A DNA stretch of 64,000 bases, from the NCBI RefSeq assembly GCF_964213995.1, contig NW_027590198.1:124001-188000 (forward strand), written 5' to 3'. Under the pieces are notes generated by a model that made no database searches, was not told where the DNA came from, and saw only the letters and a program-made list of their open reading frames with translations. Shown piece after piece: positions 22,011-61,273 of this stretch. The stretch comes from Mustelus asterias (lineage: Eukaryota). Made by a program: the position numbers and the translations under genes. The first letter of the stretch is position 1. Each line of letters opens with the position of its first letter.

Positions 22011-23520
22011 CCCTGTCTCTATATTGCACTCATCTGTGACCCTACTCTGCTGATGTTAAATTAACTAATCCCTGTTTCGGTTTATATTAAAGAAGATTTT
22101 GTCTCTGTTCACATTACACTAGACGTACTTTCTGTTTATAATAAACTAGATGCTGTCTCTGTTTATATTATACGTCACCATGTCTCTGTTCATATTGAGA
22201 TCGACAATGACTCTGCTTTTATTAATGTAGACCTGTCTCTGTACTAAACTGGATGCACTTGGCCATGTCCATGTTCATTTTATATTGGGCACGGACTCAG
22301 TTATTACTGCACTAGACATTGCACAATAATGTGAAAAGTGGCTATGGGAAAACGATTCTCTGCATCCTCCTACAGGTACAACTCTGACGGATGGAGACAA
22401 GTCTTGGGAACTGGAAAAGAAGAAGTGATATTTGAAAGCTCATTCTACTGATGCATTGAAAATAGATATCAAACCCTGCGCAGCATACACTGTCGATCCA
22501 AGATTTTCCGTTTCAAGATCCTGCTGAATACAGATGTTTATAGCCCAGCATATTTATGCATTATATTATCTCTCTACCTCACAGAACCGTGGAGTAATGT
22601 TCATGGAGCCATAGTTCAGACAGAGGATTACTATAGTGCAGTAATAACAGTGACCTGGTCTCGCGAAATATAGACAGAGTCAGGATCAAATGTCATATAA
22701 ACAGGGATTGGGTCTAGTGCATCATAAACTAAGCTCTGGTCAAGCAGAGTATTAACAGAGACAGGATCTATTTTAATATAAACAGAGGCCTTATGCAGTG
22801 AAATAGAAATGAGGTCGTGCCGAGTGCTTTGTGGGAAGTTAAAGGCAAAATACTGGCCTTACGAGAGACACCCACAGCCCATGAAAGAAATATTTTAACA
22901 ATATGGATGACATCAACGAGTACAAGAAAAACTGAGATGGTGTCCAGTGCAATTTAACCGAATGCAGTTACTTGCGCGATATAAACTGAGACACATAGTG
23001 TCAATTACTGATACAGGCCTGAACCGATATTAACTGAGGCAGAGCTTAGCGCATTAGCAGTAATTACTGATACAGATTCTGGACTGACATAAACTGAGAC
23101 AGAGTCCAGTGTGTTAGTGGTCATTACTGATGCAGTACCGAGACTGATAAAAACTGAGACAGAAATTAGTGTGTTATTAATGATTAGAGATACGCTATTT
23201 AGAGTGATATGAACTCAGAAATTGGATAGTGCATTGGTAATAATGATTAATATGTGATCTAGACTGGCATACACTGAGATATGGACAATGCAGCAAATTA
23301 GAGGGATCACATGTGCAATAATAACAGAGGCAGGGCATAGTGTTGAGTAAACAAATACATGCACTTGTGCAGCATTAACTAAAACAGTGTCGAGTTTATT
23401 AGATCGAATGAACCATTAGAGTAATGACAGTGACCGAAACTTTTGTAACTCAAGAAGGATGTTGCTCCAGTGTAGGAGTCACAGATAAAGGTTCTGATGC
23501 AGTAGGAATTGAGACACAGT
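22010..23520. repeat. Degenerate 27-bp satellite in two opposite orientations plus a ~60-bp higher-order unit
   Basis: TGTCTCTGTTTATATTACACTAGACCC-like units recur at 22155, 22182 and 22209. Reverse-complement units start at ~22620. ~60-bp AAACTGAGACAGAG units lie at 22980-23290. Related arrays at ~2940-3600, 11300-12000, 12870-13200 and 38990-41200. Confidence 0.7.
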
Positions 23521-35760: not shown

Positions 35761-35794
35761 TTTTATTTTCATAGGATCTTAGATATTTTTACAA

Positions 35795-36330
35795 GTGTGG
35801 AATCGGAGGTTGTGTTGAGCCAGCGAGAGGCAGAAAGTGGGCGCCCCTGAAACTCTTTGAGACTGACCTGCAAAGCCAACGCATTCAATGTTGGCAGAAA
35901 CTGGATGGTCTGGGTCCGACAGGTCCCTGAACAGTGTTTACAGTGTCTTCTTCAGTACGATAGTCTTGGGTCAACCTACAATTCCTCCGCCCCAGGATTC
36001 AGGATCAATTTACTCCGCCCAAAGACACTTCAAACAACGTCAAGAGAAAATGCTGGAAAATCTCAGCAAGTCTGGCAGCATCTGTAAGGAGAGAGAAGAG
36101 CTGACTTTTCGATTCCAGATGACCCTTTTGTCAAAGCTTTGTCAAAAGGTCATCTGGATTCGAAATGTCAGCTATTTTCTCTCCTCACAGATATTGCCAG
36201 GCCTGCTGAGATTTTCCAGCATTTTCTCTTTTGGTTTCAATTCCAGAATCCGTAGTAATTTGCTTTTATACTTCAAACGACATCGTCTCTTTGGAAATAA
36301 CTGAAAACCGAAGATTCCTATCTTTACCCT
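35795..36330 (+). pseudogene. IGHV: VH pseudogene, interrupted by a palindromic insertion, with no leader and no RSS
   Basis: VESEVVLSQREAESGRP*NSLRLTCKANAFNVGRNWMVWVRQVP. Defects: mutated acceptor (CAA|GT), TGA at 35848, frameshift near 35998, insertion at 36039-36269. FR3 resumes (ATCGTCTCTTTGGAAATAACTGAAAACCGAAGA) and is lost before YYC/RSS. Confidence 0.9.
36039..36269. mobile_element. PLE family B palindromic insertion inside the VH pseudogene
   Basis: Imperfect palindrome 36042-36230 centred on CAAAGCTTTG, plus a right-hand tail. TSD ACTTCAAACAAC (36027-36038) / ACTTCAAACGAC (36270-36281). Decayed hammerhead-like core AAGGTCATCTGGATTCGAAATGTC. Confidence 0.75.
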
Positions 36331-37500: not shown

Positions 37501-40034
37501 CTTAGTGATAACCACACTGGATTTTTTATTCTTCCCTCGTGTGAGTCTGATCACTAATTATGACAGGAATATTTCACACATCAGTTCTATTTGTTTTAGC
37601 TTGTCTAGTTGAAGCAATTTAGATCATCAATCAAATTAACATTCAATGGAATACCAGCCTGTTCACAGATACTTTATTTATTGTGACATCAGAATTTTCA
37701 GAACAAATTCTTATATAGAATGTATTTATTCATTTAATTAAATAGCATCTGCTGTAATGTATGTTAAAAAGGTTTCTATTCATTTTGAACCAACTGTTAA
37801 TATTCTTAAAATAACCGCTATTTTGAGTTGAAACGAATGAATAAGTGACGGTTTATCTGTTTTTGCTGCCATGAACATTTCATTGTAAACAGTGAGGTAT
37901 TTATGTAAATAAACACAGAAATAGAAATCCCAGATTAGATTGTTGACTGACAAAGAGACAACAAATATTTCCCCACCAACACAGCACAGAAATAGAGACA
38001 AACATGCAAATTGATCAACGGATTCCAGAAATGATTGTTTTATACATTAGTTATTCATCAATTATATGAAGAAAAAATATCATGACAATATCTATGTTAA
38101 GAATTAGCAAAGAATCCCTCTGATCCCGAAATGTGATAACACGGCAAATGTGTTCATGGAAATTCCCTGTGTTTCATCTCTCTCTCTCTGTCTTTCTCCT
38201 TCTGGTTCTAAGTCTTGTCTCTTCACGATAGTTCATCGTCTTCCCTCCACAATCTGAATTCAATGTTGCCCAATGTATTCTCTCAGACAGAGTAGTAAGG
38301 AATGCAACGCAATGAATTGGAATCCATGAGGGAGATTTACTCTAAAAGATCTCTTGAGCATTCTATGATCTTGGGATATTGTATACATTTCCCTCTGTAT
38401 CTAACCTGTGTTGTACCTCGTAACAAGGATTCGATGTGGCAGTACCAAAGAAATTTTCCCTGTATTTATCCCTGCCCTTGGACTGTTTGACTGGACAGTG
38501 TAGAGGAATATTTAGTCTGCATCTAAACTCACGTACCTGCCCTTTGAATGTTTGATATTACTTGTAGAGGGATATTTAATCCGTATCTAATCTCTGCTGT
38601 ACCTGACCTGAGTGTATTTTATGGGACTGTGCCGAGGCATCTTCCCCCTCTACCGAACACCAATTCAAACTTGCCTCCCGATTCTCTGATGGAAAAATGC
38701 AGAAGTGGTTTTACCGAGAAGAGAGTCCCTGGTCTGTATGCCTTCATTGTGTTTGAGCAGACTTTGTAGAGGGAGTTTCACTCTGTTTCTAGACAATCTA
38801 CCTTTTCCAGGAATGTTTGATTTTGATAGTGAGAGGGAGGTTCACTTTGTATCTAAATCATGCTATTCCTGCCTTGGGAGTGTTAAATTTGGCAATGCAT
38901 GGGGGAACTTTACAGCTAACCCCATGTTACTCCTGTCCTGTGAATTTTTGATGGGGCAGTAGGCCGTCTCTCCAAATTTCATGGGGGTTGAACCAGTCTC
39001 TTTATTAGACAGTAAATTTACCCTGCGTCAGCTTCTATTATATAAGGTCATGCCTCGGTTAATGTTGCACTAGACCCGATCTCTACACATATTAAACGAG
39101 ATGCTTTCTCTGACTATACTAAATTAGACCTTGTCCTTGTTTATATTATGCATCACCATGTTTCAGTTTATTTCAAACTAGACGCTGTGTCAGTTTGTAT
39201 GAATTTAGACCTGTCTGTTTGTATTAAAATAGATGGAGTCTTATTCCTGCACTTGACCTTATCCACGTTTATATTGCATTGGACATGGTCTCAGTTTTTA
39301 TTGCACTGGACAATGCCAGTAATGAGGAAAGTGTTTAGGGGGACACAATTCTCGGCATCCTCCTGAACATGGAATGTTATGAGGTCTTGAGCACTGGAAA
39401 AGAAGCAGTGTTATCTGAAATCTACTTCTGCTGACTGCATTGAAAATGGATACTAAGACCTGTATCGCATGCACTGTCAACACAGAACAAAGAACAAGAA
39501 AAGTTACTGCAGAGGAACAGGTCCTTCAGCACTGGAAGCCCACACCGTCCAAATACTGTCGATCCAATACTGCCTGTTTCAGAATCCTGCCAGAGACCAC
39601 TGTTTTTCATCCAACATAATATCTCTTCTTCTCGTAGAACCGCGGAGGAATGCAGACATAATTCAAATCGAGGCAAAGTTAAGTGCAGGCATGACACTGA
39701 CACAGTCTCGTGAAATATGTACAGGGTCAGGATCAAATATTACTGAACCAGAGAGTGTGGCTCGTGCAATATAAACTGATTTCTAGTCAAGCAGTGTATT
39801 AACAGAGACAGACTCTAATTTAACATAAACGGGGTCCTGATCCAGCAAAATAGAAATGGGTTCGCTCCGAGTGCCATGTGGGGATGTTCAAAGGCCAAAT
39901 GCTGATCTTTTCAGTGACACCCACATCCCATGAAACAAACATTTCAAAGATATATGACAATGTCGAGGAAAATAAAACTGAGACAGTGTCTAGTGCGGTT
40001 TTACTGGACATAGGAGCTTGTGCATATAAACTGA

Positions 40035-40621
40035 TGTGGAGATGCCGGCGTTGGACTGGGGTGAACACAGTAAGAAGTTTAACAACACCAGGTTAAAGTC
40101 CAACAGGTTTATTTGGTAGCAAAAGCCACACAAGCTTTCGGAGCTCTAAGCCCCTTCTTCAGGTGAGTGGGAATTCTGTTCACAAACAGAGCTTATAAAG
40201 ACACAGACTCAATTTACATGAATAATGGTTGGAATGCGAATACTTACAACTAATCAAGTCTTTAAGAAACAAAACAATGTGAGTGGAGAGAGCATTAAGA
40301 CAGGCTAAAAAGATGTGTATTGTCTCCAGACAAGACAGCCAGAGTTTCACTGGCTGTCTTGTCTGGAGACAATACACATCTTTTTAGCCTGTCTTGATGC
40401 TCTCTCCACTCACATTGTTTTGTTTCTTAAAGACTTGATTAGTTGTAAGTATTCGCATTCCAACCATTATTCATGTAAATTGAGTCTGTGTCTTTATAAC
40501 TCTGTTTGTGAACAGAATTCCCACTCACCTGAAGAAGGGGCTTAGAGCTCCGAAAGCTTGTGTGGCTTTTGCTACCAAATAAACCTGTTGGACTTTAACC
40601 TGGTGTTGTTAAACTTCTTAC
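40035..40621. mobile_element. Penelope-like (PLE) derived inverted-repeat insertion, family A, with hammerhead motifs
   Basis: Near-perfect palindrome: arms 40070-40342 and 40350-40621, 7-nt loop, ~35-nt extra tail on the left. 12-bp TSD CATATAAACTGA (40023-40034 and 40622-40633). Confidence 0.85.
40521..40565 (+). ncRNA. Minimal type-I hammerhead ribozyme motif (mirror copy on - strand at 40126-40170)
   Basis: CAC-CTGAAGA-A-GGGGCT(tag)AGCTCC-GAAA-GC-TT-GTG: CUGANGA core, 6-bp stem II, GAAA, palindromic AAGCTT stem III, stem I CAC/GTG. Confidence 0.75.
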
Positions 40622-42399
40622 CATATAAACTGAGACAGAGCCCAGTAATGAATGAAACTGGACCTAAATTTCTTTAGGCTGAGACGGAGTCAAGTGCATT
40701 AATAATAATTACTAATAGATACAGGACAGTGACAGAGTCCAATGTATTAGTAATGATTACTGATACAGTACCTAGAATGATGTAAACTGAGACAGAGCCC
40801 AGTTTATTTGTAATAATTACTGGTACAGGGCCTAGACTGATACACACTGAGATACGGACAATGCAGCAATTAGGAGGTATTGCAAAATGCGATTATAGCT
40901 GAGACGTGACATAGTCTTAAATAAATAAACACATGGACGGGTGCAGCTTTAACGTAAACAGGATCTAGTTTATCAAAATCTAATGAACTATTACCATAAT
41001 ATCTGTGACAGAACCATGTGTCATGCATGAAGCAGTTGCTCCAGTTTAGTATGCAGTGGCAAATGTTCTGAGGCAGTAAGAATCGAGACACGGCCTCTTG
41101 TCAGATCAGCAGAAGCATGGCTCAGTACCGCCATAACTTAGAAATTATAATAAAAACAGGGCCTGTCTCTCATTTCCGAACACCTGTTATTGAGCCAAGT
41201 GCAGAAAATAGCTTAGACATGACCTCCTCGAATATGACCCAGGCACAGCCTACTGGAATAGACAGAGGCAGAAGCTAGTTGAATATAGGCAAAGATATGG
41301 TATGTTTAAAATTGTTGTGATTTTGATGTCACTGGGAAAGTCAGCTTTTGTTGCCAAATCATGAATTCTTTTGAGAATGTGGTGGCAAGCTTTGGGAAGC
41401 TGGTGGGTGGGGTGGTTTTCGAGCCAGCTACTTTCTCCAGAATGACATTGAGCTTTTGAGTGGCACAAGTCAGGCAAGGAGAGAATAGTCAATCATCTGT
41501 GTCGGCACAGACTTGGTGGGCCGAAGGGCCTGTTCCCGTGCTTGACTGTTCTGTGATATTTGTTCATACTCCTGTCTTTTGCCTAGTAGATGATGGATAG
41601 GAGTTGGGAATTCAGGAGGTGCGTTGTTCACAGCAGAACTCCGAGCGCCTGACCTGCTCCTGTGGCCACATGATTTAAACGTCTGTCTCCGTTCAGATTT
41701 TCACGAATTGTAATTCCCAGGATGTTGATAGTGGGCGAATTCAGCGATGGGTAATGCCATTTAATGTCATGGGGAGTGGTTTGGAATCTCCCTCATTGGA
41801 GACTGTCATTGCCTGCCACTTGTGGTGCATTAATGTTCCTTGTCATTCATTAGCCAAAGACTAAATGTTTTCGAAGTCTTACTGCATATGGACACAGACT
41901 GTTTCAGTATCTGAGGAGCCGTGACTGGTGCTGAACTTTGTGCAATCACCTGTGAAAATCCCACTTCTGAACTTTGATAAAGGGTGAAGTTTGGGGCTTG
42001 GTCACCAACCTGAAGAATTCCTGCTGCAATGATTGGCCATCAACAATCCTTTGTGCTCAGTATGACTCAGGCAGTGGACTCTGTTCCCCCTGATTCCCAT
42101 TGACTGCAGTTTCGCTCGGGCTCCTTGATGCCTCAAACGGTCAGACGCTGCGTCGGTGTCAAGGGCAGGCACTCTCTATTCACCTTTTTAATTTATTTTT
42201 TTTAATCCAAATTTGGACTCTTTCCAAATCATTTCTGGAATCGAGTGCTCCTTGATTGCTCCCAAATTGACCATCTTGGTGTGTGTGTGTTGTGTGAAAT
42301 ACATCGTGTTTTATACAAATTAATTCCACAATGATCACTTGCATCCTTCCATTTCCACTACATGATGGACACACAATAAACACATCCAATTCAGATTGG

Positions 42400-43743: not shown

Positions 43744-44190
43744 AGTCATGATGTGGAGATGCCGGCGTTGGACTGGGGTAAACACAGTAAGAAGTTTAAC
43801 AACACCAGGTTAAAGTCCAACAGGTTTATTTGGTAGCAAAAGCCACACAAGCTTTCGGAGCTCTTAGCCCCTTCTTCAGGTGAGTGGGAATTCTGTTCAC
43901 AAACAGATTTTCACTGGCTGTCTTGTCTGGAGACAATACACATCTTTTTAGCCTGTCTTGATGCTCTCTCCACTCACATTGTTTCGTTTCTTAAAGACTT
44001 GATTAGTTGTAAGTATTCGCATTCCAACCATTATTCATGTAAATTGAGTCTGTGTCTTTATAAGCTCTGTTTGTGAACAGAATTCCCACTCACCTGAAGA
44101 AGGGGCTAAGAGCTCCGAAAGCTTGTGTGGCTTTTGCTACCAAATAAACCTGTTGGACTTTAACCTGGTGTTGTTAAACTTCTTACTGTG
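43744..44190. mobile_element. PLE family A inverted-repeat insertion, nested in an older PLE family B remnant
   Basis: Arms ~43782-43907 and ~44066-44191, near-identical to the 40035 element. 12-bp TSD TCCACAGATGCT (43732-43743 and 44191-44202). Confidence 0.85.
44086..44130 (+). ncRNA. Minimal type-I hammerhead ribozyme motif (mirror copy on - strand at 43843-43887)
   Basis: CAC-CTGAAGA-A-GGGGCT(aag)AGCTCC-GAAA-GC-TT-GTG. Confidence 0.75.
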
Positions 44191-47100
44191 TCCACAGATG
44201 CTGTCAGACCTGCTGAGATCTTACAGCATTTTCTGTTTGTTTCCAGTATTTCCTTCTATACAACTTTGCTTTGAATAATTTATTGATATTAACATTTATT
44301 GACACCTTTTTGTCACCAAGGATAAAATCTGTCCCAGAATTCAGTTGGAAATTGAATGAACACAGACCGAGTATCATGAGTAGCGACCCAGCAGACTCTG
44401 CGCTTTAAACTCCTGAATCATAACTGGTGTGATGATTTCCAAAGTAATCATACTAATTAAACCACCTGCACCAAATATGATTTTACTGAATCTTTAAATC
44501 CCGATTCATTATTACACAGTTTTGAGAAATAATGTAACACTTGTAGTTCCAGTGAGTTTCACAATATATCTGTTGCCACATTATTTATTTTACAGCTTGT
44601 TACCTTCACTAATTTGGGTGAGGGCATGGTGAGTGATTTGCTGCACATGTTTCAAATATTACAATCCTCCCTCCTCAGCCAAATCATGTTCCCTCTTTCG
44701 ATCTTGGATATGAATATTCAGCATCAGCAGAGAAATGAACCATCCGTGCGGCAGGAAAATCCCCTCTTCTTTTCGTGAGGATCAGCTTGCTAACTCCCTC
44801 GAAAATCGGGTTTGATTTCACCCAGACCTTCTGGAAGTATTGAAGTTATTAGACTGACAGAAATGGAAACAAGGAACTGTTTCAATTTATGAACCAGTCA
44901 AGTACAAATATGGGAATGTGGAACAGCATCTTTCAGTTCCATTTAACAATGCATCCATCAATCCGTTCACTGATTCCTCAATCAAAATATTCAGGCATCC
45001 AACTGATATTCATATCATTCATTCAACGGTCATTCATTCCTGCATCAACACAGTCATTCATTTATTGTTTGCGCAGATGGTGACGTAATATTAATTTAAT
45101 TGGCCCAGTGATCCAGGGACCCAGGACAATGATGTGGGGACAGGATTTAAATCGGAGCATTGCAGCTGGTGGAATTTGAATTCAATTAATAAATATGGAA
45201 CAGATACGAATGGCGACCATCGGACCCTCTCTGATTCCCCAATGAGTGAAATCTGCCATCGCTACCTGGTCTCACAAGGATGTGACTCCAGATGGACAGC
45301 AAAATAGCTGACTCCTGAATATCTTCAGAAGTGGCCTAGAAAACCACTCAGTTCAAGGGAATTTGGGAAAGACAAAAAGTGCCGGTATTTGCAACCAAAC
45401 ATCCCATGGAAAGATAAAGGGAACGAAAATACAAACATACATGTTCATGTATCGTCTCTCTGAGACATCTCTCAGTTTGCCTGTAATTCTTTCTATCCAT
45501 CTATCACCATATCCTGATGTGTTGGAAAAATCATCATTGTTGCTAACAGGGTGCCAGAGAAGCTGCATGACTTTCCTTTCATTAGAGATGGGAAAAATTC
45601 ATCTAGATTTACAACTTTTAAAAATTAAAGTGCCTCCAGTACTGTTGCTGGGTAGATTTGTTTATAAATAGGCCTCATTGACAATGTGAAGGGTTTTAAG
45701 TTGGCTTGCAGCCAAGCGGTCAGTACTGAGGAAACAGGTCTTTGTTCTGCTGCGCAACGCCCCCAGATGCTTCCTGTCAATAACTTTGAGCATTTGACAG
45801 CAGTTTGGATTGCTGCCAAATACTGTGTGGGACAGATTAGCGTGAACCTAAATGGACAAAATGGGATTCAGCCACTTAAACAATAAATGTTTCATTCCCA
45901 CAAGAATGACACATTTTAAATCGTAATCATTCTAATCAAATATTTTCATTCAATGTCCTGTTCATTATATGAGTAAATAGTATCGCAAAACAATAAAGTG
46001 ACCAGATGCTTTTTCATTTGTATAACTTCCAAGTAAATGCCATTCCACTAATTAAAGTCTGTTTATTAACCACTTCATGAAATGCGAGAGAGAGATGTTG
46101 ATGGTCCCAATTCCCCAGTCAATTGAAATCAGTGCAATGGCATAAAATGCATCGAAATATAATATGAAGAGAACAACATAAAACTGACATGAACAGCGGG
46201 AATTCCTGGAATATTCTGAACGTTCTGTATCGCATTTAAACAGCAGCGTCTCTTGTACCTGATTAACACCCTATTCTATTGTACAGTATAATCTGATTCC
46301 TGTTCTTGAAGAGTTCCAATCATAGCTGCCAATGTGTGGAGAAATGATCAGTTCATAACCTGATTCAATGGAAGATAAAACATTTATTCTTGTGATATTG
46401 TGCAATGTGCCGCAAAGTCCTGATATCTTGTGTTCGCAATACCAGCGAATGTTAGACAGCCGGTGGCCGATAGAGTGACCTGCAATGATCTGGATGCTGA
46501 AGGAGAACTTTAATGATCTCCGTGTCCGTTCCATTCATTAACTTCTCTGTCAAAAGTCGAGGTTAATTTTATGTTTCTCTGTCAACTCACTATTTAATTA
46601 TCAGGAGGGCGGGATTCTTATTATTTTCAAAGGGCTGTCTTCAAGATTGGGGTCGTTTGACAAATATAAGGAGAAACATTGTATTGTGTGAGAGTTTCTT
46701 CTCATCTCCAAACCCAAATTGTACAGTGATAGCCATCCACACTGTAAATGCAATCACTTTGTTCATACCTCCTCATTTAGTTACAGAAATCGGTAAAAAT
46801 TCTTCTGATAAATGATGCTTTATTATTGTAATGTGACAGAGACCCGGAATTGTTGACACGTAGACTGACGGTCTCTTTATTTTCCACAAATGTTATTTCA
46901 TCATTTTCAGATTTGTGTTCTTCTTGGGGGCGTGGTAATAAAATCACCATATTTACAATGGAATTAGTTATTTTAAATAAAGAAATGATGAACTGCAATA
47001 TCACCATCAGAAATAATGGAGACAATACAATGAACATACTCAGCCAAACAAATATCCCGACACAGATAAAATGTCCATTTTAATATTAACCGATTGTAAA

Positions 47101-47306: not shown

Positions 47307-47352
47307 ATGAGGTCGGCGATTTCTCTCAGTTTGTTGCTGACTTTCTTATCCG
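47307..47352 (+). CDS. IGHV: IgH V leader exon (MRSAISLSLLLTFLS-G)
   Basis: ATG at 47307, hydrophobic signal peptide, phase-1 donor G|GTGAGT at 47353. Confidence 0.95.
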
Positions 47353-47483
47353 GTGAGTAGTTTTTTTTTCATTGTCTAAGTCTCCCAGTTACTGTCTCAG
47401 TTTTAGTCCATCTCTGTAATATTCCAGAGTCAAAAATCATTACACCAGGATTAATCCTCGTGTTTTTTGATCTACTTTTACAG

Positions 47484-47788
47484 GTGTCCAGTCGGAGGTT
47501 GTGTTGACTCAGCCAGAGGCAGAGACCGGGCGTCCAGGAGGCTCCCTGACACTGACCTGTAAAACCAGCGGCTTCAGTCTTAGCAGCTATAGCATGCACT
47601 GGATCCGACAGGTTCCAGGACAGGGGCTAGAGTGGCTGCTGAGGTACTATAGTTCATCTAGCAACAACTACGCCCCAGCAATTAAAGATCGATTTACTGC
47701 GTCCAAAGACACTTCAAGCAACATCTTCTCTTTGGAAATGACGAGGCTGAAGACCGAAGACACCGCCATCTATTACTGTGCAAGACAC
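47484..47788 (+). CDS. IGHV: Immunoglobulin heavy-chain VH exon (IgM cluster), intact, germline unrearranged
   Basis: Acceptor TTTTACAG|. Translation [31 protein letters not shown]...[12 protein letters not shown]...[10 protein letters not shown] has the canonical Cys, Trp and YYC. Confidence 0.97.
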
Positions 47789-47827
47789 CACAGCGAGAGG
47801 AACTAGGGATGGACCCGAACAAGAACA
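47789..47827 (+). promoter_or_regulatory. VH 3' recombination signal sequence, 23-bp spacer
   Basis: CACAGCG (47789-47795), 23-bp spacer, ACAAGAACA (47819-47827). Confidence 0.93.
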
Positions 47828-48198
47828 GCTCGAGAGGGAATTCAGCAACTTCCATCATAACCTGAAGGTCAGTGCTTGTTTTAAATGTAGTATTAACGAC
47901 AGTGACCAGAACAAAAACACAAACCGCTTCTGACAAACCCAACTTAGTGAAAATTAAACATTAAACCAAGAAAACACACAGACATAATGGGCTGAGCTTT
48001 TCACTCTGTTTATATTTACTGTTAACAGTTTCAGCAATTACACACCTGGATATAATGCTCGTTTTAATATTTCTGATACTTGGAGGAGATGTTTCTAGAT
48101 TGTGTTTTGTGAACTGCTGCATAAATTGTAAATTACATCGAAATAATGGTCTATTTGAAGTGAATATTGAGCGGCAGTACTGAACAGAGACTGAGTGC

Positions 48199-48278
48199 AG
48201 TTTTTGTGCGAGTGTCTGTCACTGTGATACAGCAGTGGGTCACTGTGCTGAGCACAGCGACATCCTCATACAAAAACC
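48199..48278 (+). other. IGHD: DH1 segment (coding 48227-48240, ATACAGCAGTGGGT) with 12-RSS and 22-RSS
   Basis: AGTTTTTGT-12-CACTGTG [14 bp] CACTGTG-22-ACAAAAACC. This is the typical shark D1 12/22 layout. Confidence 0.93.
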
Positions 48279-48578
48279 TCATGGAAAGAGATTGCTCAAA
48301 TTGGTGATCAGTACCACAGCAGGATTTTCAAAGTAAACGAGGCTTCAGTGAAATAATGTGTGGAAGTAATATTAGTTTGTGAAAAGGTATAAAAATCTTC
48401 CCATAAAATCTATATTTACCGATCTGCTAAATCGACACAGAGAGTTTAAAAGCATTCCGATCCCCTTTATAAATACAATGACCAGGACAAGCTGAAATAT
48501 CTCACTCATTCGCTCGTGGATGAGGCAGAATCAGATTTTTGAGACAGCAGTGAAATTAAACAGTTAGCAGTCGGGCAC

Positions 48579-48645
48579 AGTATTTGTCATGCTGTGTCTC
48601 ACTGTGATACAGCAGTGCACAGCAATTACTGTCGATACAAAAACC
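48579..48645 (+). other. IGHD: DH2 segment (coding 48607-48617, ATACAGCAGTG) with 12-RSS on both sides
   Basis: AGTATTTGT-12-CACTGTG [11 bp] CACAGCA-12-ACAAAAACC. This is the typical shark D2 12/12 layout. Confidence 0.93.
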
Positions 48646-48972
48646 CCTCAGCATTAATTGACCGAGACTGGGGCAGTGCTCTGTTTTCCAATCCAGCATT
48701 GTTTACAGTGCTGTATTATTTATGTCCCAGCACTACACAAATAGCGAGAATTAATATGGGAAATTTATGATAACTATTTGATTATCAGTTGGTGTTTTCA
48801 ATACCTTGATCATGTGATCCTCTATGAAATATAAAACATTAAGGTTATTTATGTAGAGCGAACGGTATCCACCAGTACAATAATAATTTCATGAAAATGC
48901 AGTGATTTGCTTTCCCTCTGGCTTGTGACTTTTTAAAATACTGATGGATTTCTGTCTATTTTGTGCAGAGAT

Positions 48973-49011
48973 GGTTATTGTATGACCCAGCCTAGAGAAT
49001 GTGACACTGTG
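48973..49011 (-). promoter_or_regulatory. JH 5' recombination signal sequence, 23-bp spacer
   Basis: GGTTATTGT (48973-48981), 23-bp spacer, CACTGTG (49005-49011). Confidence 0.92.
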
Positions 49012-49059
49012 ACGCCATGGGCTACTGGGGACAAGGGACCATGGTGACGGTGACTGCAG
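49012..49059 (+). CDS. IGHJ: JH segment (AMGYWGQGTMVTVTA)
   Basis: WGQG motif and phase-1 donor G|GTAAG at 49060. Confidence 0.96.
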
Positions 49060-52000
49060 GTAAGAACCATGCATTTATTTAGTCAGTGTTTTATTTGAGT
49101 TTTTGTTTTATACTTTTTCTCGATTTTATTAATTCATTCGTTCAATGTAATGTGGTTTGGTGGATTCTGTGCTGAAAATCTTTACAATGTTTCATGTGAT
49201 CCTGCTTAAAATGGGGGTTATAGAATTCTACTGTTAATTGACAAAAGGTGATACTGAGTGATTCAGTCTCTTGTTGTGATTTGGTGTGTATCTGCTGAGG
49301 ACATTGTGTGGCTGGGTTACTTTAAATTCCTTCCTTTTGTTAAGCAGTTCGGCGTTTCTTCAATGTTTAATCTCGGTGACATCTAGTGGCTGCGAGTTGC
49401 ACCATCTACTGCACAAGTGTTTGAAATCTAACCCAATATTAACAAAATGTGTTAAAGTTTCTGCTTTAATGTTGCAAACATGTTCCGCTTAATCACAATC
49501 TGGTTTTGTTATGTAATTGTTGTGCTCATTTTAATTATTAGTTGCTTTGGTGATGGTTAGATTGGCTGGATTTTAAATTGAGATTTTCTGCCAATGTGAA
49601 ATTTGATTCTGTTGCAACTGTTTGTAGAATTGAGCTGCTTCTGCATGAACCGGGGTTCAGTCCCTCAGTGCTGCGTGTTTCTGGTGAGGAGGTTGGCTGT
49701 CTGGGTGACTTTGAATAAGTAAAATTTGTGAAATGGTTCGGAGATTCTGCATTGTTTACACTCGGTGACACTGAGCTGTTACACATTTTGTGATTGAATA
49801 CAAACAGTCTGCGGGTTTTAAACTACTTGACGTGTGCCTGCAGACAGAAATTAGGCAGGCTTTATTGTATTTGTATTTTTTAAAATCGTAGCTGATAATT
49901 GCAGGTTAAACCAAACCACGGTTTATGCCACTCATCCAAAACATAGTTTGCCACTGCATTCACAATTTGGGATACATGCCATGTTTAACCTCGGTGGCAT
50001 CTGACGGCTGCAGCTTTTACCCACCCAATATTTTAATATGTTTGAAATCTGTTTGAAATATGACACAATATGAATAGAATGTGGTAAAATTTCAATATCA
50101 ATTTGTTGGACATATTCCACCTCCTCGCAATGCTATTGCTCTTATTCCAAATTTCTGTTTAGTTCAATCATTCATATATTTGGTGACGAGCTGTTTTGCC
50201 GGATTGAATATTGAGATTTCCTTGCAATCATATTTTTGATTTTGTTGAATGGATAATTGAGTTGCGTCCCCGTGAAACGGATTCATTCCCTTATTGATGT
50301 GTTTTGGTGTGTTTCTGTTGAGGAGGTTCTGTTGTTGGGTCACTAAGAAGGTTTAAAATGTGTGAAATGTTTTGGTGTTTCTGCATTGTTTAAACTCGGT
50401 GGCACTGAGCGGTTACACGTTTTCTGGTTAAATGCAAATAATCTATGAGTTTGAAAATCCTTGTAGGGAGAAAATAAGCAGGTTGTGAAAGAAATAAAAT
50501 AAAGGTATTACAGCATTTTTATAAATTTTAACTGACTCTTAGAAATTAAAATAAATCATGTCTTACAACGCTCAATCGGACACTAAGTGGTTGCTGTTAA
50601 AACAAACTTCTCATTAACAAGTTTGATAATAAAATTAATATAAATCAAACTGTTATTAATCGGTAACATAACTACATATTCACAAAAGATTACTTTCTAT
50701 TAATATCATTTCGCATTAATCGGCTTTAATAGTTCTGCTGTGCTTTGCATACAATTAACATGACCAAAAAGGTTTCTCGGCTGAAAATATTTTGTGGTAA
50801 TTCCAGAAACAATTTCAATGATAACATGCTGTTTCCACAGCAGCGCTCAGTTCAACAAGGTACTTTGCATTAATTGTTATATCCCCGATGAGGTTCGCAT
50901 TCACTTAAATATGAGTTTGGAGAATAATTGGCAATAAAACGCTATTTGGAAATTTTTGTGCCCGATTATTACATTGTTTCTGTGCAGGCGCAGCATTCCT
51001 TCCAAGTAATTTGTAGTTGGATGCAGAGGTAATTAATCACTAATCTCATCTCAAAATTTGTGAAATGGTTTGGTGTTTCTCAATTGTTTCTGTATTGTTT
51101 CAACTCGGTGATCCTGAGCGGTTACACTTTTTCTAGCTAAATGAAAAAAACAAACTGCGTTTAAAGATCCTTGTCAGGATAAAACAAACTGGTATCGGAA
51201 AAAATAAAATAAATATATATTTGAGCATTTTATTCATGTTAACTGATGCTTGCAGATTAAAGTAAATCATGAATTACAATTCTTACTGTGTCACTGTATC
51301 TCTGTTAGGGACATTACACTACACTGGATCTGTTATATCTGATGTGCTCATTTTCAGAAAAAAAAATATTTTTTCCCTAGTTTTCGAGATTTGAGATAGA
51401 CAGGGAGAAATAGTTAAAAGTCGAAGGGAATTTTGAAATGAATATCAGTTTAATTTAAAAGAAGTTATTGATTTTTGTTGTTGTAGTTTGAAAATTGATC
51501 AATTAGAATCCCACAGTTTGAATAAATTTGACAGAGTAAACACAGTTTTCTGACAGGTGGAATTCGCTAACACTAAACAATTGTTCATATAACGGTGTTT
51601 GAATTGTCGTAAGGTGTCAACAGAAACTGGCTAGAGATTTACAATTTAATACTTGAAATTCAAATAATTAATTTTTTATAATATTATAATATTTTTATAT
51701 TAGTAATATTTGCTCTGCATTTAATAATAACATCCTGTCTCCCATTACTGCTGAACATAGAATAGAATTATTGGATGAATAAATGACAGAATAGAAGAAT
51801 TGATTCTATTTGAGCATTATGTTTAATTAGTATTAAATATTATACGAAGAAAAAGTCTCGACTTATTTTGTGCATCATGTTTCAGTGTTGCAGAGGATTT
51901 GAATCAATTGTCCTCATTGTGTTTTTCATTGTTTAATTCAGAACTTCTTAATTTAAACAATATGTTCAGTAATTAAATTATATGGATGGTCCAAATTATT

Positions 52001-53474
52001 AAATCTAGGAAGCAGCTTCATTGACCTCAAACTGCCAGGCCGTTACAGTGTATACAAATTCAGAAACATGCATTCTTAACACGTTTGCAGGTTATAATAG
52101 GGCATTTGGAGTAAAAGTGGAAATGAAAAAACATGACAATGTTATTCGATTGAAGCAAATGAATTACAGATGTCTGAATCTTTCCATTCAGTAATTTGAA
52201 GTTTATTGTTTAAGGTTTAATTGGAACCTAATTACGTCACAATGTTAGAGGCAGGGAAAGTTTTGAATGATTGAAAACTGATTTTATTTCGGAGTACAAA
52301 TCAGCTAACAGGAAAAGTAACCGGCAATTAACAAAACAAAATATAATATTGGTGCCAATTAATTCAAAACAAAATACCTTGAATAATGCACGGGCGTGCA
52401 AAGTATCATCCCGTTTCAGAGAATGTTTAATTGTATCGAAAATGAATTCAGAAACAAAACCTTTCTTTCATCAGCTATGCTTAGCTCGATAAGGTGTTTT
52501 ACCTCGAATATTTTGTTGATTACATTTAATTAAGAAATTAGGTCGAATCAGGTAATGATTGTCAATGTAAATGTTTCTTGGTTTATTTAACCCTTACTGT
52601 GTCACTGTATCTCTGTCGGGGACATTGAACTGTCCTGAATCTGTTATTTTTGATTCCTAATTTTCAGCGAAATTACATTTTTATATAGTTTTCGAGAAGT
52701 GAGACAGACAGAGAGACATAATTAAAAATCGACAGGAGTTTTGAAATGAATATCAGTTTTATTTAAAAGAGGTTATTGATTTTCTGCTGTAAATTGATCA
52801 TTGATCAATTCGAATCAAACAGTTTGAATTAAATTGACAGATTGAACATACCTACCTGCTGGGGAATCGATTGTTGCACCGTTTGTGTCTGTTCTGTTTC
52901 TGCGCGCGTGGTCACTGTGTTGGGACAGGAAACTGCCTGACTGGTTGTAAATCTTCTGGTTCCTTCTGCTGTATTTCAGGGAGTGAAATTTGATTTATTT
53001 CTTCAATACACTTGTATCAGTGAGAAATGTGGCAGTTTGACTTGATGTTTGACTCGGCGTCTCAGAAATGAGATCCCTACAGCATATTGTGACCACCAGA
53101 GAGAGCAGAAACGTCAGATTGTAGAGGGAGAATTGGGTGATTTTTAACCAGTGATGAACCGGCCTTGGGAATGTTCGATGAGCAAATGCAAAGTGAGATT
53201 TACTATATTGTGCTCCGTAGTAAAGCAGTCCATGACCTGTTTGGTATGACAGTTGAAGGGTCAAATTCATTTGCATCTTATTTTTAATCTTCTAAAGGCA
53301 TTTTAGAGTCATTTGCTCGGCCAGAATTTTTAATCATCAATAACTGTTCCTTGAGAAAGTGTTGATATGAAGCATCCTTTGAATAACTGCAGTCCATATG
53401 CTGCAGGCATCCGCCGTGCTGTTAGGCGGAAGTTCCAGGATTTTGACCCAGGAGGAACTGAGGTATTGTTTCAA

Positions 53475-53635
53475 TGATGTGGAGAGGCCGGCGTTGGACT
53501 GGGGTAAACACAGTAAGAAGTTTAACAACACCAGGTTAAAGTCCAACAGGTTTATTTGGTAGCAAAAGCTACCAAATTATTTTGCTACCAAATAAACCTG
53601 TTGGACTTTAACCTGGTGTTGTTAAACTTTTTACT
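53475..53635. mobile_element. Short PLE family A palindrome in the J-C intron, truncated before the hammerhead
   Basis: Arms ~53510-53567 and ~53580-53637, same tail ATGTGGAGA.GCCGGCGTTGG. 12-bp TSD GTATTGTTTCAA (53463-53474 and 53636-53647). Confidence 0.85.
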
Positions 53636-54099
53636 GTATTGTTTCAAGTCAGGATGGTGTGTGTCTTGGAGGGGAGCTTGCAGGTGGTAGTGTTCATATA
53701 TGGCTGTTGCCCTTATCCTGTTAGGATATAAAGGCAACGGGTTTGGACAGTGTTTACTATGGAGCCTTGGTGAGTTGCTGTAGTGCATCTTGTATATAAT
53801 ACACACCGCTGTCACTGCTTGTTAGTGATGGAGAGAGCGAATAGGGTGAATGAGGGGGCGGATAATCTTGTGGGTGGCTTTGCCCTGGATTGTGTCAAAT
53901 TTCTTGAGTTTTTACAGGTTTCCCTCATTGAGGAAAGGGGAAATTATTCAATTGCGACTGATTGCGAAAGATTTAAATGTTTTTCCAACTCTTGGCCCGC
54001 GCTCCGTATTGTGCTCACTTGTCACTCCCACTTACTGTGTGAATGGGTGAGTGTGTGTGGAGTGAGTGGCTTTTCCAGACTGAATCAGCCAGATAGAGA

Positions 54100-55687
54100 C
54101 TTATACACATCACACACTCTCACACACATAAATACACACATACACACTCTCATATGCTCTCACACATGCACACACACACACACACACATACATACTCACA
54201 CTTACTTTCTCTCTCATAGGGTATCTCTTACACACCCATACACATTCTCTCTCTCACGTTACACATACACTCTCTCAAATACAAATACATACATAGTCTC
54301 GCTCTCTCCATCAATCTCCCACACCCCCATACACAAAAGCGCTCACATCCCCACACACCCACCCATTCTCTTTTATACAGAGACACACACTCTCACATAA
54401 GCACAGTCTCACACTCTCGCACACGCACTCTCACATGCACTCTCTCTCCCACTCTCTGTCACACACGCTCAAGCTGTCTCACATTTATTCACACGCTCTC
54501 TCACAATTCCTCGTGCACACGCATCTCTCTCTCTCTCTCACACAGACGCACATACTTCTTTCTCTCTTGCACACACTATCTCACACCTCTACATTCTTGA
54601 TCTCACACACTGACTCTCTCACAAACACTCCCTCACAAACATAGACACATGCACACACTCTAACACACACTCTTACACACCGACACAGTCTCTCACATAA
54701 GCACAGTCTCGCGCACACATTCTCTCTCTCTCACACACACACATGCACTATGCCTCTCACATTCCCTCTTCCGTACACTCTCACTTCGTCTCACACACAT
54801 TCCCATGCCCTCTCTCTCTCTCTCTCTCTCTCTCATACGAACACTTGCACATGTATTCTCTCACACAGGCACATATTTCTCTCTCTTTCACACGCTCACT
54901 CCCTTAGACATTATCTCACACATGCACAATCTTGCTCTCAAACACTGTCTCTCACAAACACCTTCTCTTTCACACGCACACAATCTCGCACACAGTTTCT
55001 CCTTCTCTTACACACGAACACACATGTATATACAATGTATCTCTCTTTAAACACTCCACCTATCACAGACACATGTTCTCTGAACAGTCAATTCACTCAC
55101 ACACACTCACGCATTCACTCTGTCTAAGTTTCACACTTTTTCTCGCTCACACACACTCTCCCCGCCCCTCCACACACACACACACATACACTCAAACACA
55201 TTGCTTCTATCTCCCACACAGATTGTACATATCTTTCTCACTCACACGCCATCCCATGCACAGTTTCACACACTGATGAACATATTATTTTGCTTTCCAA
55301 TAGGCACTCCCTCTCACACACACTGTCTTTCACATGAACACAACACTCTCCCACACACATCACCTCCCTCTCAGACACACACACTCTCTTTCACAGACAT
55401 CGTGTATCTCATATAGACACACTCCCTTTCACATCAACATACACACAATCACACACAGAAGTACTCTTCCACACAGACTCCCCACACACACTCTCCCCGC
55501 CCCTCCACACACATACATTTTCAAGACACACTCTCACACACAAAGAATAACCCTTCAAACACACATTCTGTCTCTCACACACACATTACCTCACACACCC
55601 TTTCTCTCACGTGCACTCTCCCCTCTTGCAGGCACAGCCCACTGTCTCACACATGTGCAAACACAGTCTATCACACACAGGCACCCT
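54100..55687. repeat. Degenerate (CA)n/(CT)n low-complexity tract
   Basis: Direct inspection. Very G-poor top strand. Confidence 0.9.
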
Positions 55688-55847
55688 NNNNNNNNNNNNN
55701 NNNNNNNNNNNNNNNNNNNNNNNNNNNNNNNNNNNNNNNNNNNNNNNNNNNNNNNNNNNNNNNNNNNNNNNNNNNNNNNNNNNNNNNNNNNNNNNNNNNN
55801 NNNNNNNNNNNNNNNNNNNNNNNNNNNNNNNNNNNNNNNNNNNNNNN
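55688..55847. other. Assembly gap (160 N)
   Basis: Run of n. Confidence 1.
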
Positions 55848-55874
55848 TACGTCAGAGTGTCTGTCCTTGACATC

Positions 55875-56195
55875 ATAGAATAGAATCATAGGATGCTACA
55901 GTGCAGAAAGAGGCCACTCAGCCCATCGAGTCTGCACCAACAGCAATCCCACCCAGGCCCTATCCCCATAACCACATATATTTACTCTAACTAGTCCCCC
56001 TGACACTAAGGGGCAATTTAGCACGGCCAATCTACCGAACCCACACATCTTTGGACTGTGGGAGGAAACAGGAGCACCCGAAGGAAACCCAAACAGACAC
56101 GGGGGGAACTTGCAAACTCCACACAGACAGTGACCCAAGTCGGGAATCCAACTCTGAGGCAGCAGCGCTAATCACTGAGCCACCGTGCCACCGCC
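55875..56195 (-). mobile_element. V-SINE (HE1-like) in the J-C intron
   Basis: GGCGGTGGCACGGTGGCTCAGTG...CCCACAGTCCAAAGATGTG...TTCTATG on the - strand. Confidence 0.88.
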
Positions 56196-56849
56196 CCCAC
56201 TCCCCCCCGACCGCCCTCCCGCCAGCCCCCCCCCCCACCCCCCCCCCTGCCCCCCCCCCCACACCCCGACCCCCCCGGCCCCGGTAGCATTTGAATGAGG
56301 GTGGGATCAAGGAGCCCGAGTAAAACTCAAGTCAGTAAGAATGGGCGGGAAATTCTTCTCTGTTCGGAGTCATACTTAGCACAAAGCAACATGGTATTGG
56401 TGGTTGGAGGTCAAACATCTAAGTTCAGATTTCACTGCAGGATTTGGGCAGGGGAGTGTTCTGGGACCAACAATCTTCTACTGCTTCAACAGTGACATTC
56501 CATCCAACATGAGGTCAGAAGTAGGGATTTCCATGAGTTACACCAGACACAAACACCCAAAAAATAAGAAGGGAATTGGCTGAGACCAAGGCCGCCTGGC
56601 TCCCCAATACTGGTGTAAACTTGGTGTTTGATTCCTGTGCGACCCATCCTAGTTTTGCTGTCAGCTTCCCTACAGCTCCCTCAGTCTGACTATTTGTTCA
56701 CTGGTACGTGTTTCTTAAAGAAAGGCACCGACATTAAAGCAGCTACCCGGTGATCTACCCTGCTGCCTGACTTTACACAGCCCTGTTACAGAAAGCTGAT
56801 CAATGTGGAGAATCGGGAAAAGATCGATGGAGAGGAAGAGGAGGATGTG

Positions 56850-58360
56850 GCTCACTGACTCTCTCACCCTGGCCCACACTTTCTGACTCACCCTCAATCT
56901 CTCATCCTCACTCAAAGAACTTCACTCCCTCACCCTCACTTACCCACCTTCCCTCGCTGACCCACTCTCACTCATTCATCCCCACTCACTCATCCCAACT
57001 CACTCATCCCAACTCACTCATCCCAACTCACTCACCCTTGCTCACTCATCCACCCTCACACGCTCAATTTCACACACTCAACCTCACACACTCAACTTCA
57101 CACACTCAACTTCACGCACTCAATCTCACGCACTCAACCTCAGAAACTCACTGATCCTCATTCACCCCGGGTCACTCACCCTCACACCCTCACTCACTCA
57201 AAATCACTCACACACATTCGCTCTCTCACTCTCACCCATCCTCACTCACTCACCCTCATTCACTCACATTCACATCTTCATTCACTCACCAGCACTCACT
57301 CACTCACACTCACTCGCCCTCACACACCCTCACTCACTCATCCTCATTCACTCACTGTCACTCAGTCACCCACACTCACACGCTATCACTCACTCAACCT
57401 CACTCACTAACCCTCATTCACTCACTCAGAGCCTCAGTCACTCACCAACACTCATAGTCACCTTCGTTCACTCATCCCACTAACCCACCCTCACTCACCC
57501 AGTCTCACTCACTCTCACTCACTCAGCCCACTTACCCACCCTCACTTATCTAGTGTCACTCACTCTCACTCACCCTCACTCACCCCACTTACCCACCTTC
57601 ACTCATCCAGTCTCAATCACTCTCACTAACTCACCGCCCTTACCCTCCCTCACTCATCCCGTCTCACTCACTCTCACTCACCCTCATTCACTCTCCCCAC
57701 TTACCCACCCTCACTCACCCAGACTCACCCCCACACACTCAAGCTCAGTTACCCTCTCTCTCTCACGTACGCCACCTGACCCATTTAAACTCACTGAGAC
57801 TCACGCACCTACATTCACTCACACACCCTCACATATTCACCATCACTCAAGTTCACCCACCCTAACTCACAGATCTTCAATCACTCATCCTCAGTCAAAC
57901 GCCTTCACTCACTCATCCTCACTCATCCACCCATCCGTATTCATTCTCCCTCACACACTCTCACACACCACCCTCAATAACACACCCTGACTCACTCACT
58001 CTCTCACCCTCACTTATTAAGTCACATTCACTCCTCACCCTCATTCACTCGCTCTCACTCAACCACCTTCACTAACCTTCATGCATCCTCACTCACTCAC
58101 CCTCATTCATTCTCTCTTACCGACACTCACTCACCCACCTTCACTCACCCACCCTCTCTCACACACCCTCATTTACTCACGCTCTCTCACCCTCACCCAC
58201 ACTTACTCACTCACCCTCAATCACTCATCCTCACTGAAAGAACTTCACTCACTCACCCTCACTTACCCACCTTCCGTCACTCACACACCATCACTCATCC
58301 ACTCTCACTCCTTCAATCACTCACCCTCACGCACTCACATTTTCTCACTCACACTCGCTA
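56850..58360. repeat. (CACT/CTCA/CACC)n low-complexity tract
   Basis: Direct inspection. Confidence 0.9.
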
Positions 58361-58489
58361 AACCTGTGTGTGGAGGCCTGCAGCGAGAGAGAAGAAAGAT
58401 CTCAAGCGGCAGTTTGGTGTTCAAATGTGGGAGCTGCCCTGCGAATATGGAGAGCTGGGGGGAATCCCTGGGGGCTCAGGGCCAAGGAC

Positions 58490-59062
58490 AATGGCAAAGA
58501 GCCGGGGAGAACAGGAGGCGTGCTAAAGGGCAGAGAGCCGAGGGGGAAGGGCAGAGAGCCTGAGGAAAGGGACCACAGCCGGGCAACAGGGCAGAGAGCC
58601 GGGGGAAAGAGTAGAGAGTCAGGAGAAAGGGCAGAGAGCCAGGAGAAAGGGCAGAGAGCCAATAGAAAGGGCAGGGAGCCAGGTGAAAGGGCAGAGAACC
58701 AGGAGAAAGGGCAGAGAGATGGGGGAAAGGGCAGAGAGACCAGGGAAAGAGGAGAGAGCCAGGATAAAGGGCAGGGAGGCCGGGGAAAGGACAGAGAGCC
58801 GAGGAAAAGGGAAAGCGAGCCCAGAGAAAAGGGCAGAGAGTCAGGGGGAAAGGCAGAGAGTCAAGGGGAAAGGGCAGAGAGTCGGGGGAAAGGCTACGGA
58901 GTTGAGGGAAAGGGCAGATAGCAGGGGGAGAGGGCACAGAGCTGGAAGGAAGTGTAGCGAGCCAGGTGGAAGTGCGGAGTGCCGGGTGAAAGGGGAAAAG
59001 AGCCACAGGGAATGGCAGAGAGCCAGGGGAAAGGACAGAGAGCCGGGGAAAATGGGCAGAGA
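58490..59062 (+). repeat. G/A-rich 20-bp minisatellite (GGGCAGAGAGCCAGGAGAAA)n
   Basis: About 28 degenerate 20-bp units, almost T-free on the top strand. Confidence 0.9.
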
Positions 59063-59389
59063 GTGGGTGATCGACAGGCGAAGTGAGGAGGTGCAAAATA
59101 GAGCGAGCACCACAACCAGATCATCTGTAATCTCGGTGAATAATGGAGGAGACGTCAGGTCCCGAATGGCCAACTCTTGCTATTAATGTATGACCCTTCA
59201 ATTAGTCAATGTTGCAATTATTTGAATTTGTAATCACATTTAGAGCTTCCTGGTCATTCAGTATGTATTCATTCCGGAGATATTTTTGAAGCAAAGTCAC
59301 TAATCTTCGTTTTGTGGATTGAGGGACAGTGAGTTGGAGAGAGGAAGGGGTATATGTCAGTTTGAACACAGCCAATTTCCAAAACTACA

Positions 59390-59512
59390 ATGTGGAGATG
59401 CCGGCGTTAGGTTGGGATGGGCACAGTAACGAGTCTGACAACACCAGGTTAAAGTCCAACATGTTTATTTGGAATTGCGAGCTTTTGGAGCTCCTTCATC
59501 AGGTGAGTGGAT
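59390..59512 (-). mobile_element. PLE family A-related solo arm (hammerhead stem II partly deleted)
   Basis: ATGTGGAGATGCCGGCGTT...ACAACACCAGGTTAAAGTCCAAC...CCTTCATCAGGTGAG. Confidence 0.75.
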
Positions 59513-60036
59513 GATATGAATGAAGAGACAACTTCTTCATCACAAAGTGCTGTTGTTTGAGAAATAAATAGCAGTTGCAATAATGGAGAAAATCTTTGCT
59601 CTTCTCTGTTAATCCAATGAATGATATGTCATTTTGAGGAGCAGAATGTTTTTCTTTCTAATCTGATAGAGGTGGAGACAGGGATATGAGTTTCTACAGA
59701 GATGACGGATCTCAGATGATAGAAATAACAGAATCACAAAGGTGGATGTACGTTTTGATCGGGAAATATTAGGATTAGTTCATAATTCTAGACAAAGTTT
59801 GAGATAGAAACATAGAAAATAAAGCAGGAGTAGACCATTCGGCCCTTTGAGCCTGCTCCGCCATTCACTTTGGTCAGAGCTCATCAATATCCTGATCACA
59901 CCTACTACCCATATCCCTTGGTCCCTTTAGCCCCAAGAGCTTTATCTAATATAGAAACATAATGGTAAAAACAGGTTTGATGACTTAATAAACGCAAGTA
60001 AGAGTCTAACTTGTTCAATCGACTATTCTTTCCCAG

Positions 60037-60330
60037 CGACACCGTCTCCGCCCACTCTCTACAGCCTGGTCTCCTCCTGTCAGCAACACAACTCCGCTGG
60101 CTCCATCACCTACGGCTGTTTGGCGATGGACTACTCTCCAGATGTCACCAAACTGACCTGGAAGAAAAATGGGCAGCCGATCACCAATGGGTTTAAGACT
60201 TACCCGTCAGTGAGAAACACGAAGGGAACCTACACCCTGAGCAGCCAGTTGACCATCACCGACTCAGAATGCCCCAAAATTCACTGTGAGGTTCGACACA
60301 GCGGCTCAGTCAAGAGCATTGGAATGCAAT
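60037..60330 (+). CDS. IGHM: IgM constant exon Cmu1 (CH1)
   Basis: Acceptor TTTCCCAG|. [14 protein letters not shown]...[10 protein letters not shown]...LTWKKNG...HCEVRH is a C1-set domain with the light-chain-pairing Cys. Donor T|GTAAGT. Confidence 0.95.
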
Positions 60331-61190: not shown

Positions 61191-61273
61191 GCGATGGTGC
61201 TAAAATAAAAGAACTAATTTTAATTGTTGTCAATTGAATCTTCAAGTAACGTCTAAACATGTGTTTGTTGAAG

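Follow-up and report, generated by a model that had tools for sequence, protein, structure and literature searches.

The near-perfect palindrome at positions 40023 to 40633 of a 64,000-nucleotide (nt) stretch of the Mustelus asterias genome (contig NW_027590198.1; hereafter the window) is almost certainly one 5'-truncated, head-to-head copy of a young autonomous Penelope-like element (PLE). A preliminary description, made from the letters alone, had proposed a young PLE insertion with inverted pseudo-long terminal repeats (pLTRs), a tail and a target-site duplication (TSD), and this is borne out, as the arms are the 3' end of an element encoding a reverse transcriptase (RT) and a GIY-YIG domain. 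Self-alignment returned the two inverted arms of about 273 bp that had been described, with 273 alignment columns, one mismatch and one 1-nt gap, and the tail of about 35 nt on one arm only and the exact 12-bp TSD were likewise confirmed from the sequence. The left boundary between TSD and element is uncertain by up to 3 nt, since the three terminal TSD bases also fit the element end.

Counted from the A of the ATG of the parental open reading frame (ORF) as unit 0, with negative values upstream, the whole insert reads 0 to -310 inverted and then -320 to -38 (Table 1). The 7-nt loop (40343-40349) of the preliminary description does lie between the arms, but it is parental sequence of the right arm, which is 10 nt longer, and not a spacer; the arms are joined through a CAG overlap. 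Compared with locus L072 of the same genome, the inverted arm plus tail has 305 identities and 6 mismatches, and the sense arm 278 identities, 4 mismatches and one gap. The counterpart of the tail in intact elements is the stretch immediately upstream of the ORF ATG. The palindrome copy itself has no ORF.

Table 1. Coordinates of the palindrome, its parts and related sites in the window (unit positions are relative to the parental ORF ATG)
Feature	Position	Strand	Remarks
Empty paralogous site	22979..22989	+	One target copy ATATAAACTGA in older duplicated upstream block
Left TSD	40023..40034	+	12 bp, CATATAAACTGA; final 3 nt shared with element end
PLE tail, 35 nt	40035..40069	-	Present on left side only
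Inverted arm, 3' untranslated region/pLTR of autonomous element	40070..40342	-	Unit -38 to -310
Second minimal type-I hammerhead motif	40126..40170	-	Predicted cut between 40132 and 40131
Junction	40340..40349	+	3-nt microhomology CAG (40340-42) plus 7 nt of parental sequence
Sense arm, pLTR without tail	40350..40621	+	Ends at unit -38; parental match from 40340 (-320)
TATA-like TTTATAA	40493-99	+	Mirrored at 40193-99 on minus strand
Minimal type-I hammerhead motif	40521..40565	+	Predicted cut 40559/40560 (unit -100/-99)
Likely family transcription start	A40523 (unit -136)	+	Putative; mirrored at 40168 on minus strand
AATAAA	40578..40583	+	Within conserved downstream box; candidate polyadenylation signal only
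Right TSD	40622..40633	+	12 bp, CATATAAACTGA
Independent sister insertion	43749..44191	.	Arms 0..-158 and -320..-33; own 12-bp TSD
Independent short sister insertion	53475..53637	.	Arms end at -94 and -92, just inside predicted cut; own 12-bp TSD

The autonomous partner with the same pLTR that the preliminary description had called for is present in the same 3.68-Gb genome, where the arm directly follows the stop of the GIY-YIG ORF in sister copies. A protein search of the genome gave 23,550 candidates, of which 150 were scored. Fifteen loci were fetched because of their long open frames and are therefore a selected sample; eight of them contain complete ORFs of 892-893 amino acids (aa) that start at the tail-adjacent ATG, are flanked by pLTRs and are mutually 98.7-99.96% identical in DNA. 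Pfam identified RVT_1 (E = 6.3e-10) and GIY-YIG (E = 5.3e-5) in the 893-aa ORF, and a CX2-5CxxC linker motif (CHSNLCKTC, residues 754-762) precedes the GIY-YIG domain. Loci L064-L069, L071 and L072 carry pLTR copies on both sides of the ORF, that is, a partial tandem. The nearest named proteins are uncharacterised shark proteins from M. asterias (94%), Scyliorhinus torazame (86%) and Heptranchias perlo (84%), and the homologues bear no clade names. The family is probably of the Neptune type, an assignment made by the linker motif.

Several observations concern the family itself. Loci L064-L069 and L075-L078 form a very young subfamily in which 63 bp close to the ORF stop are duplicated and the wobble in stem II of the hammerhead motif is shifted (GCCTC for GCTCC) with pairing kept. 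The six complete ORFs compared within this group (L064-L069) are 99.6-99.96% identical. An 845-codon open frame at L066:6467-9004 (+), which resembles the pol of LTR retrotransposons by eye, adjoins a full-length PLE.

The locus itself is ordinary, being one among many thousands of stubs. The hammerhead pattern of the arm has 23,282 exact matches in the genome, against none for a reversed control. The layout was assessed in 72 regions around the first 100 of these matches, and the head-to-head, one-tailed form is the usual one in the family: exactly one tail was present in 47 of 52 head-to-head junctions. The two arms of these 47 end near 0 and near -35, and a TSD of 12-13 bp accompanies 32 of the one-tailed junctions. 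An inverted truncated copy with a 30-40-bp tail at one end is a published PLE layout (Craig et al. 2021, PMC8557442; Arkhipova et al. 2013, PMC3846280). Near-equal arms, differing by 20 nt or less, were found in 23 of 47 cases compared with 8.7 expected by shuffling, and among long-armed cases in 6 of 19 compared with 1.4 expected (p = 0.001).

Arms ending between -316 and -325 were found twice among 114 sampled, with two more in the window. Four arms begin at -320 to -322 near CTGCAG (L093, L104, position 40340 of the window and about 43904), and there is possibly another preferred arm end near -320. Among individual junctions, that of L171 contains a captured fragment of the ORF start and that of L094 a 47-bp piece repeated several times, and in L105 the tail continues into 227 bp of the ORF.

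Taken as a whole, the palindrome is very probably explained as a truncated head-to-head Penelope-like insertion, likely made by twin copying of the same RNA, in which the hammerhead is a passenger. The route that we consider probable is twin priming, in which two complementary DNAs (cDNAs) from one RNA are joined by microhomology. The element protein would cut the target with a 12-bp stagger, and each nicked strand would prime reverse transcription at one of two internal starts about 35 nt apart, which would leave the tail on one side only. Both cDNAs would then halt at about the same point (here -310/-320), at either a common RNA end or a stall, before being joined end to end by microhomology, which is a 3-nt overlap in this copy. 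Priming at two starts is derived from Frangieh 2024 together with the family statistics. For the Anolis PLE, cutting and extension have been shown on both target strands, and the tail is bounded by two internal RT start sites (PMC11167929); the outer ends of the palindrome, at about 0 and about -35, fit these starts. A point that weighs against this account is that 24 of the 47 two-armed insertions are asymmetric.

Other origins of the palindrome were considered. Palindromes are hard to assemble, and the contigs of four sequencing runs did not span the locus, confirming neither the junction nor an empty allele; their flank contigs had several differences and resembled paralogous immunoglobulin (Ig) clusters. 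An assembly fold-back is nevertheless hardly conceivable, as the flanks are unique, the TSD is exact, the arms differ at two sites, the tail is one-sided and the same layout recurs elsewhere with different TSDs. The preliminary description had also placed a paralogous empty site near 22971-22992, and this site was recovered. Segment 22489-22989 is about 71% identical to 39555-40034 and, holding a single ATATAAACTGA, runs on into the paralog of the right flank. Such a single-target paralog, collinear on both sides, effectively excludes a fold-back and indicates that the 12 bp were duplicated upon insertion. Long terminal inverted repeats with a TSD, together with the high copy number of the arm, would suit a dedicated non-autonomous element, similar to a miniature inverted-repeat transposable element (MITE) or a retrozyme, that spreads as a palindrome. 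We regard this as very improbable given that arm lengths and junctions differ at nearly every locus, that no inspected copy shares the -310/-320 junction, and that the arm forms the 3' end of a unit with an RT ORF. Here the earlier label of a non-coding PLE derivative has to be given up, as the palindrome is a truncated copy of the autonomous element, and arms of sister copies range from less than 100 to about 2,800 nt. A MITE or other DNA transposon was rejected also on account of the unequal outer ends, and a non-LTR retrozyme since the units stand head-to-head, with motifs on opposite strands and no head-to-tail tandem. A self-priming fold-back, where a single cDNA folds over at the 3-bp CAG/CTG stem and serves as its own template before the hairpin is resolved and integrated, has been proposed for Adineta PLEs (PMC3846280) and would account for both the enrichment of near-symmetric arms and a junction that forms a perfect 3-bp stem with a 7-nt loop. 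The loop, however, is part of the tailless arm, and copying that strand could not have yielded the tail. The longer inner end was evenly divided between the tail arm (10 cases) and the tailless arm (10 cases), a balance not predicted by a single fold-back, many junctions hold inserted or locally copied bases, and independent extension of both target strands has already been shown for the Anolis protein (PMC11167929). We therefore consider fold-back unlikely as the route to this copy, at perhaps a minor share of the probability, although a free hairpin nicked later on either strand could possibly rescue it.

Each arm holds a hammerhead motif followed by AATAAA, in agreement with the preliminary description, with the core CAC-CTGAAGA-A-GGGGCT(TAG)AGCTCC-GAAA-GCTT-GTG at 40526-40562 (+) and its mirror on the minus strand. 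The motif is built of stem I, CUGAAGA, a bulged A, a 6-bp stem II, GAAA and a palindromic GC that replaces stem III. The core CUGANGA/GAAA/UH, stems I and II and the palindromic positions 15.2-16.2 are those of a minimal type-I hammerhead, and the cut positions of both motifs are predicted from standard hammerhead numbering. With pairs counted by anchored positions, the motif was recognisable in 206 of 247 copies; N7 and H17 vary and stem II stays paired. Position H17 is U in 168 of the 206 copies, C in 24, A in 14 and never G, and the first pair of stem I is T-A in 5 copies versus C-G in 193, a compensatory change. The conservation of the core among the 206 copies was in part imposed by the search itself.

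Other findings weigh against an active ribozyme. The young family carries U at position 17, which makes a poorly cleaved triplet. The fold of the motif is no more stable than those of shuffled sequences (z = 0.11), and the ribozyme-like fold, at -11.3 kcal/mol, is less favourable than the predicted minimum-energy fold of -13.0 kcal/mol, which is not the ribozyme fold. Rfam scans of 39500-41200 and 40480-40640, a check proposed in the preliminary description, returned no hammerhead model at E <= 10, and motifs without stem III may fall outside the Rfam models. Hairpin-type microRNA models and other weak matches in Rfam were below gathering scores and were dismissed as palindrome-driven or due to chance.

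Dimeric cleavage mediated by AAGCUU had been suggested as well. The two motifs of the palindrome are on opposite strands and cannot form a cis dimer; a single transcript of the palindrome would contain one motif and an antisense partner that would pair with it. The palindrome continues past the cut site for some 210-220 nt upstream, and its template RNA was therefore uncut. As read from its sequence, the ribozyme had no visible part in making this copy, in which the motif would be a passenger.

At the level of the family, the 5' ends of sister copies suggest that the ribozyme likely cuts in living cells. Among copies that mismatch the parent at each of the three bases upstream, 1,024 begin at -99, compared with 103 at -105, six bases upstream, and 268 at -98. 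A purine-only filter left about 800 at -99 (78 of 100 among the matches listed, counted by hand) compared with 27 at -107. All 32 inspected -99 matches were true truncations with their own flanks, and 29 of them had an inverted partner, which ended at or inside -99 in 26 cases and at -100 or -101 in three. None of these 29 partner arms passed -101, as opposed to 23 of 69 background partners that were longer by more than 5 nt (Fisher p = 1.3e-4).

A second peak of 861 copies lies at -136, 37 nt upstream of the first and about 25-30 nt downstream of TTTATAA, its comparison levels being those at -105 and -107 and the 22 of 114 sampled arms that ended over the 18 nt from -140 to -157. A G precedes the -136 ends in 81 of 100 and the -99 ends in 46 of 100 among the matches listed, both counted by hand under different filters, and part of the G at -136 comes from the G-rich partner arm. 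From 30 loci of the -136 class, 0 of 21 partners passed -141, with at least one partner missed by the script. In contigs of independent sequencing runs, joints near -99 and -136 ranked in the top 15 by support out of 831.

Position -136 is likely a capped transcription start and -99 an uncapped cut. Family transcripts would thus start at -136 and be cut after -100, and the 3' product of the cut would likely serve as template for the copies of about 100 nt. We consider hammerhead cleavage in vivo at the family level to be reasonably probable on these 5' ends. The full sequence of events, namely a capped start at -136, a germ-line ribozyme cut after -100, retrotransposition of the cut RNA and synthesis of both arms as a pair of cDNAs that a dimeric RT makes from the same RNA, has a somewhat better than even chance of being correct.

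A number of results count against cleavage. A high count of 752 at position -94 is due mostly to a palindromic overlap, which shows that sequence context can create peaks, and the 483 at -100 are inseparable from -99 ends plus a chance pyrimidine. In an older C17 subfamily (GTGATTCC) the peak did not recur, with counts of only 62 versus 34. None of 15 inspected matches of this subfamily had both arms ending at the cut; eight join a longer partner through a GTG overlap and seven resemble mutated or deleted intact copies. Copy counts may also include duplicated or allelic contigs. For Poseidon of Anolis carolinensis, RNA-seq gave no reads with ends at the cut and cleavage was dispensable in vitro (PMC11167929), whereas the genomic 5' ends of the shark family peak at the predicted cut. 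The pile-up at -99 could instead come from stalling of RT at an RNA structure, either stem I or the AAGCUU dimer duplex, or from a second transcription start. The U|G step suits a pyrimidine-purine start, the AAGCUU duplex (-4.3 kcal/mol) begins right behind -99, and the lack of a clear peak in the older subfamily would be consistent with either process. Yet the peak lies exactly on the base of the predicted cut, stalling should rather occur around -93, at the 3' edge of stem I, and it is -136 and not -99 that is marked by a cap-like G. The filter moreover removes joints made via the AAGCTT palindrome, and the junctions that were inspected differed from one another. A stall or second start is accordingly the less probable source of the peak, but as a competitor of cleavage it deserves weight.

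In vivo cutting by the minimal hammerheads of animal PLEs is an open question, with weak activity in vitro (PMC4209133) and, for the Anolis element, dispensability in vitro (PMC11167929), and the origin of the inverted repeats of PLEs has been described as undefined (PMC8557442). With a 5'-end peak of about 10-fold on the predicted cut base, and with partners that do not pass -101, both questions become directly testable. If true, the cleavage reading would provide genomic evidence of a minimal PLE hammerhead that cleaves in vivo and sets the 5' ends of insertions. The shark family would then be a single-base fossil record of the Penelope cycle, with the hammerhead as the first 45 bases of the transcript, and near-identical intact ORFs would be available for testing. 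No publication describing PLE 5' ends at the hammerhead cut came up in our literature search, with most subscription papers and supplements lying outside that search.

Several features are shared with endonuclease-positive (EN+) PLEs: the arrangement in partial tandems, a truncated copy in inverted orientation, a tail confined to one end, TSDs of about 8-12 bp, an RT followed by GIY-YIG, and a TATA and initiator-like sequence in the pLTR (PMC8557442, PMC3846280). The palindrome differs from these EN+ PLEs in that both arms are pLTR only, and the shark family in its great youth, its very large size, its many intact ORFs and a TSD that is sharply 12-13 bp. The CX2-5CxxC linker is named for Neptune/Nematis in PMC8557442 and is shared by the shark element, but unlike in Neptune no microsatellite targeting is evident in the listed TSDs of the shark family.

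In Poseidon, as in the shark family, the tail is delimited by two element ends that lie about 35 nt apart, and the hammerhead lies upstream of the RT starts (PMC11167929). The hammerhead of Poseidon contains the start of the ORF, and reverse transcription begins 111-118 nt inside this ORF, whereas the shark tail ends at the ATG (PMC11167929). Metazoan PLE minimal type-I hammerheads resemble the present motif in their long stem II, the base bulged after A9, the G10.1-C11.1 pair, the palindromic 15.2-16.2 and the lack of a real stem III (Cervera and de la Pena 2014, PMC4209133). The consulted text of that study names no sharks and notes motifs in opposite orientation 100-700 bp apart, as well as low activity in vitro and no in vivo evidence. 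Non-LTR retrozymes are likewise non-coding PLE-derived sequences with a type-I hammerhead, but they form head-to-tail tandems with motifs on one strand, in contrast to the head-to-head units and opposite strands of the palindrome (bioRxiv 10.64898/2026.07.22.740005).

The palindrome had been placed about 7 kb upstream of an IgM promoter, which agrees with a V leader ATG at 47307, about 6.7 kb downstream of it. Pfam confirmed V-set and C1-set domains in the IgM region (V and the first two constant exons only). Two further young insertions (Table 1) and two older ones lie in the same window, and because this number matches the genome-wide density the IgM neighbourhood is not special. A host function of the palindrome, or a role at the IgM gene, is not supported. 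Cruciform DNA or long double-stranded RNA could possibly form from it, which would apply equally to thousands of sister copies.

The IgM heavy-chain cluster occupies 47307-63709 of the window and consists of a leader, V, four constant-type exons and a secretory tailpiece. A degenerate VH-like segment at 35773-36041, with a stop and a frameshift, is paralogous to the V at 47473-47725 and belongs to an older 14-kb duplication (about 20.3-34.3 kb versus 36.3-46.6 kb, 67-78% identical). Directly after it, at 36042-36230, lies an older 189-bp palindrome of a different repeat, 88% self-complementary and possibly a stub of another PLE family. The older repeat that hosts the sister insertion at 43749-44191 has a degenerate hammerhead-like motif near 43688. 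The older copies at 19093-19214 and 59392-59510 (about 76% identical) belong to related subfamilies with C at position 17, and the latter sits in the intron upstream of the first constant exon.

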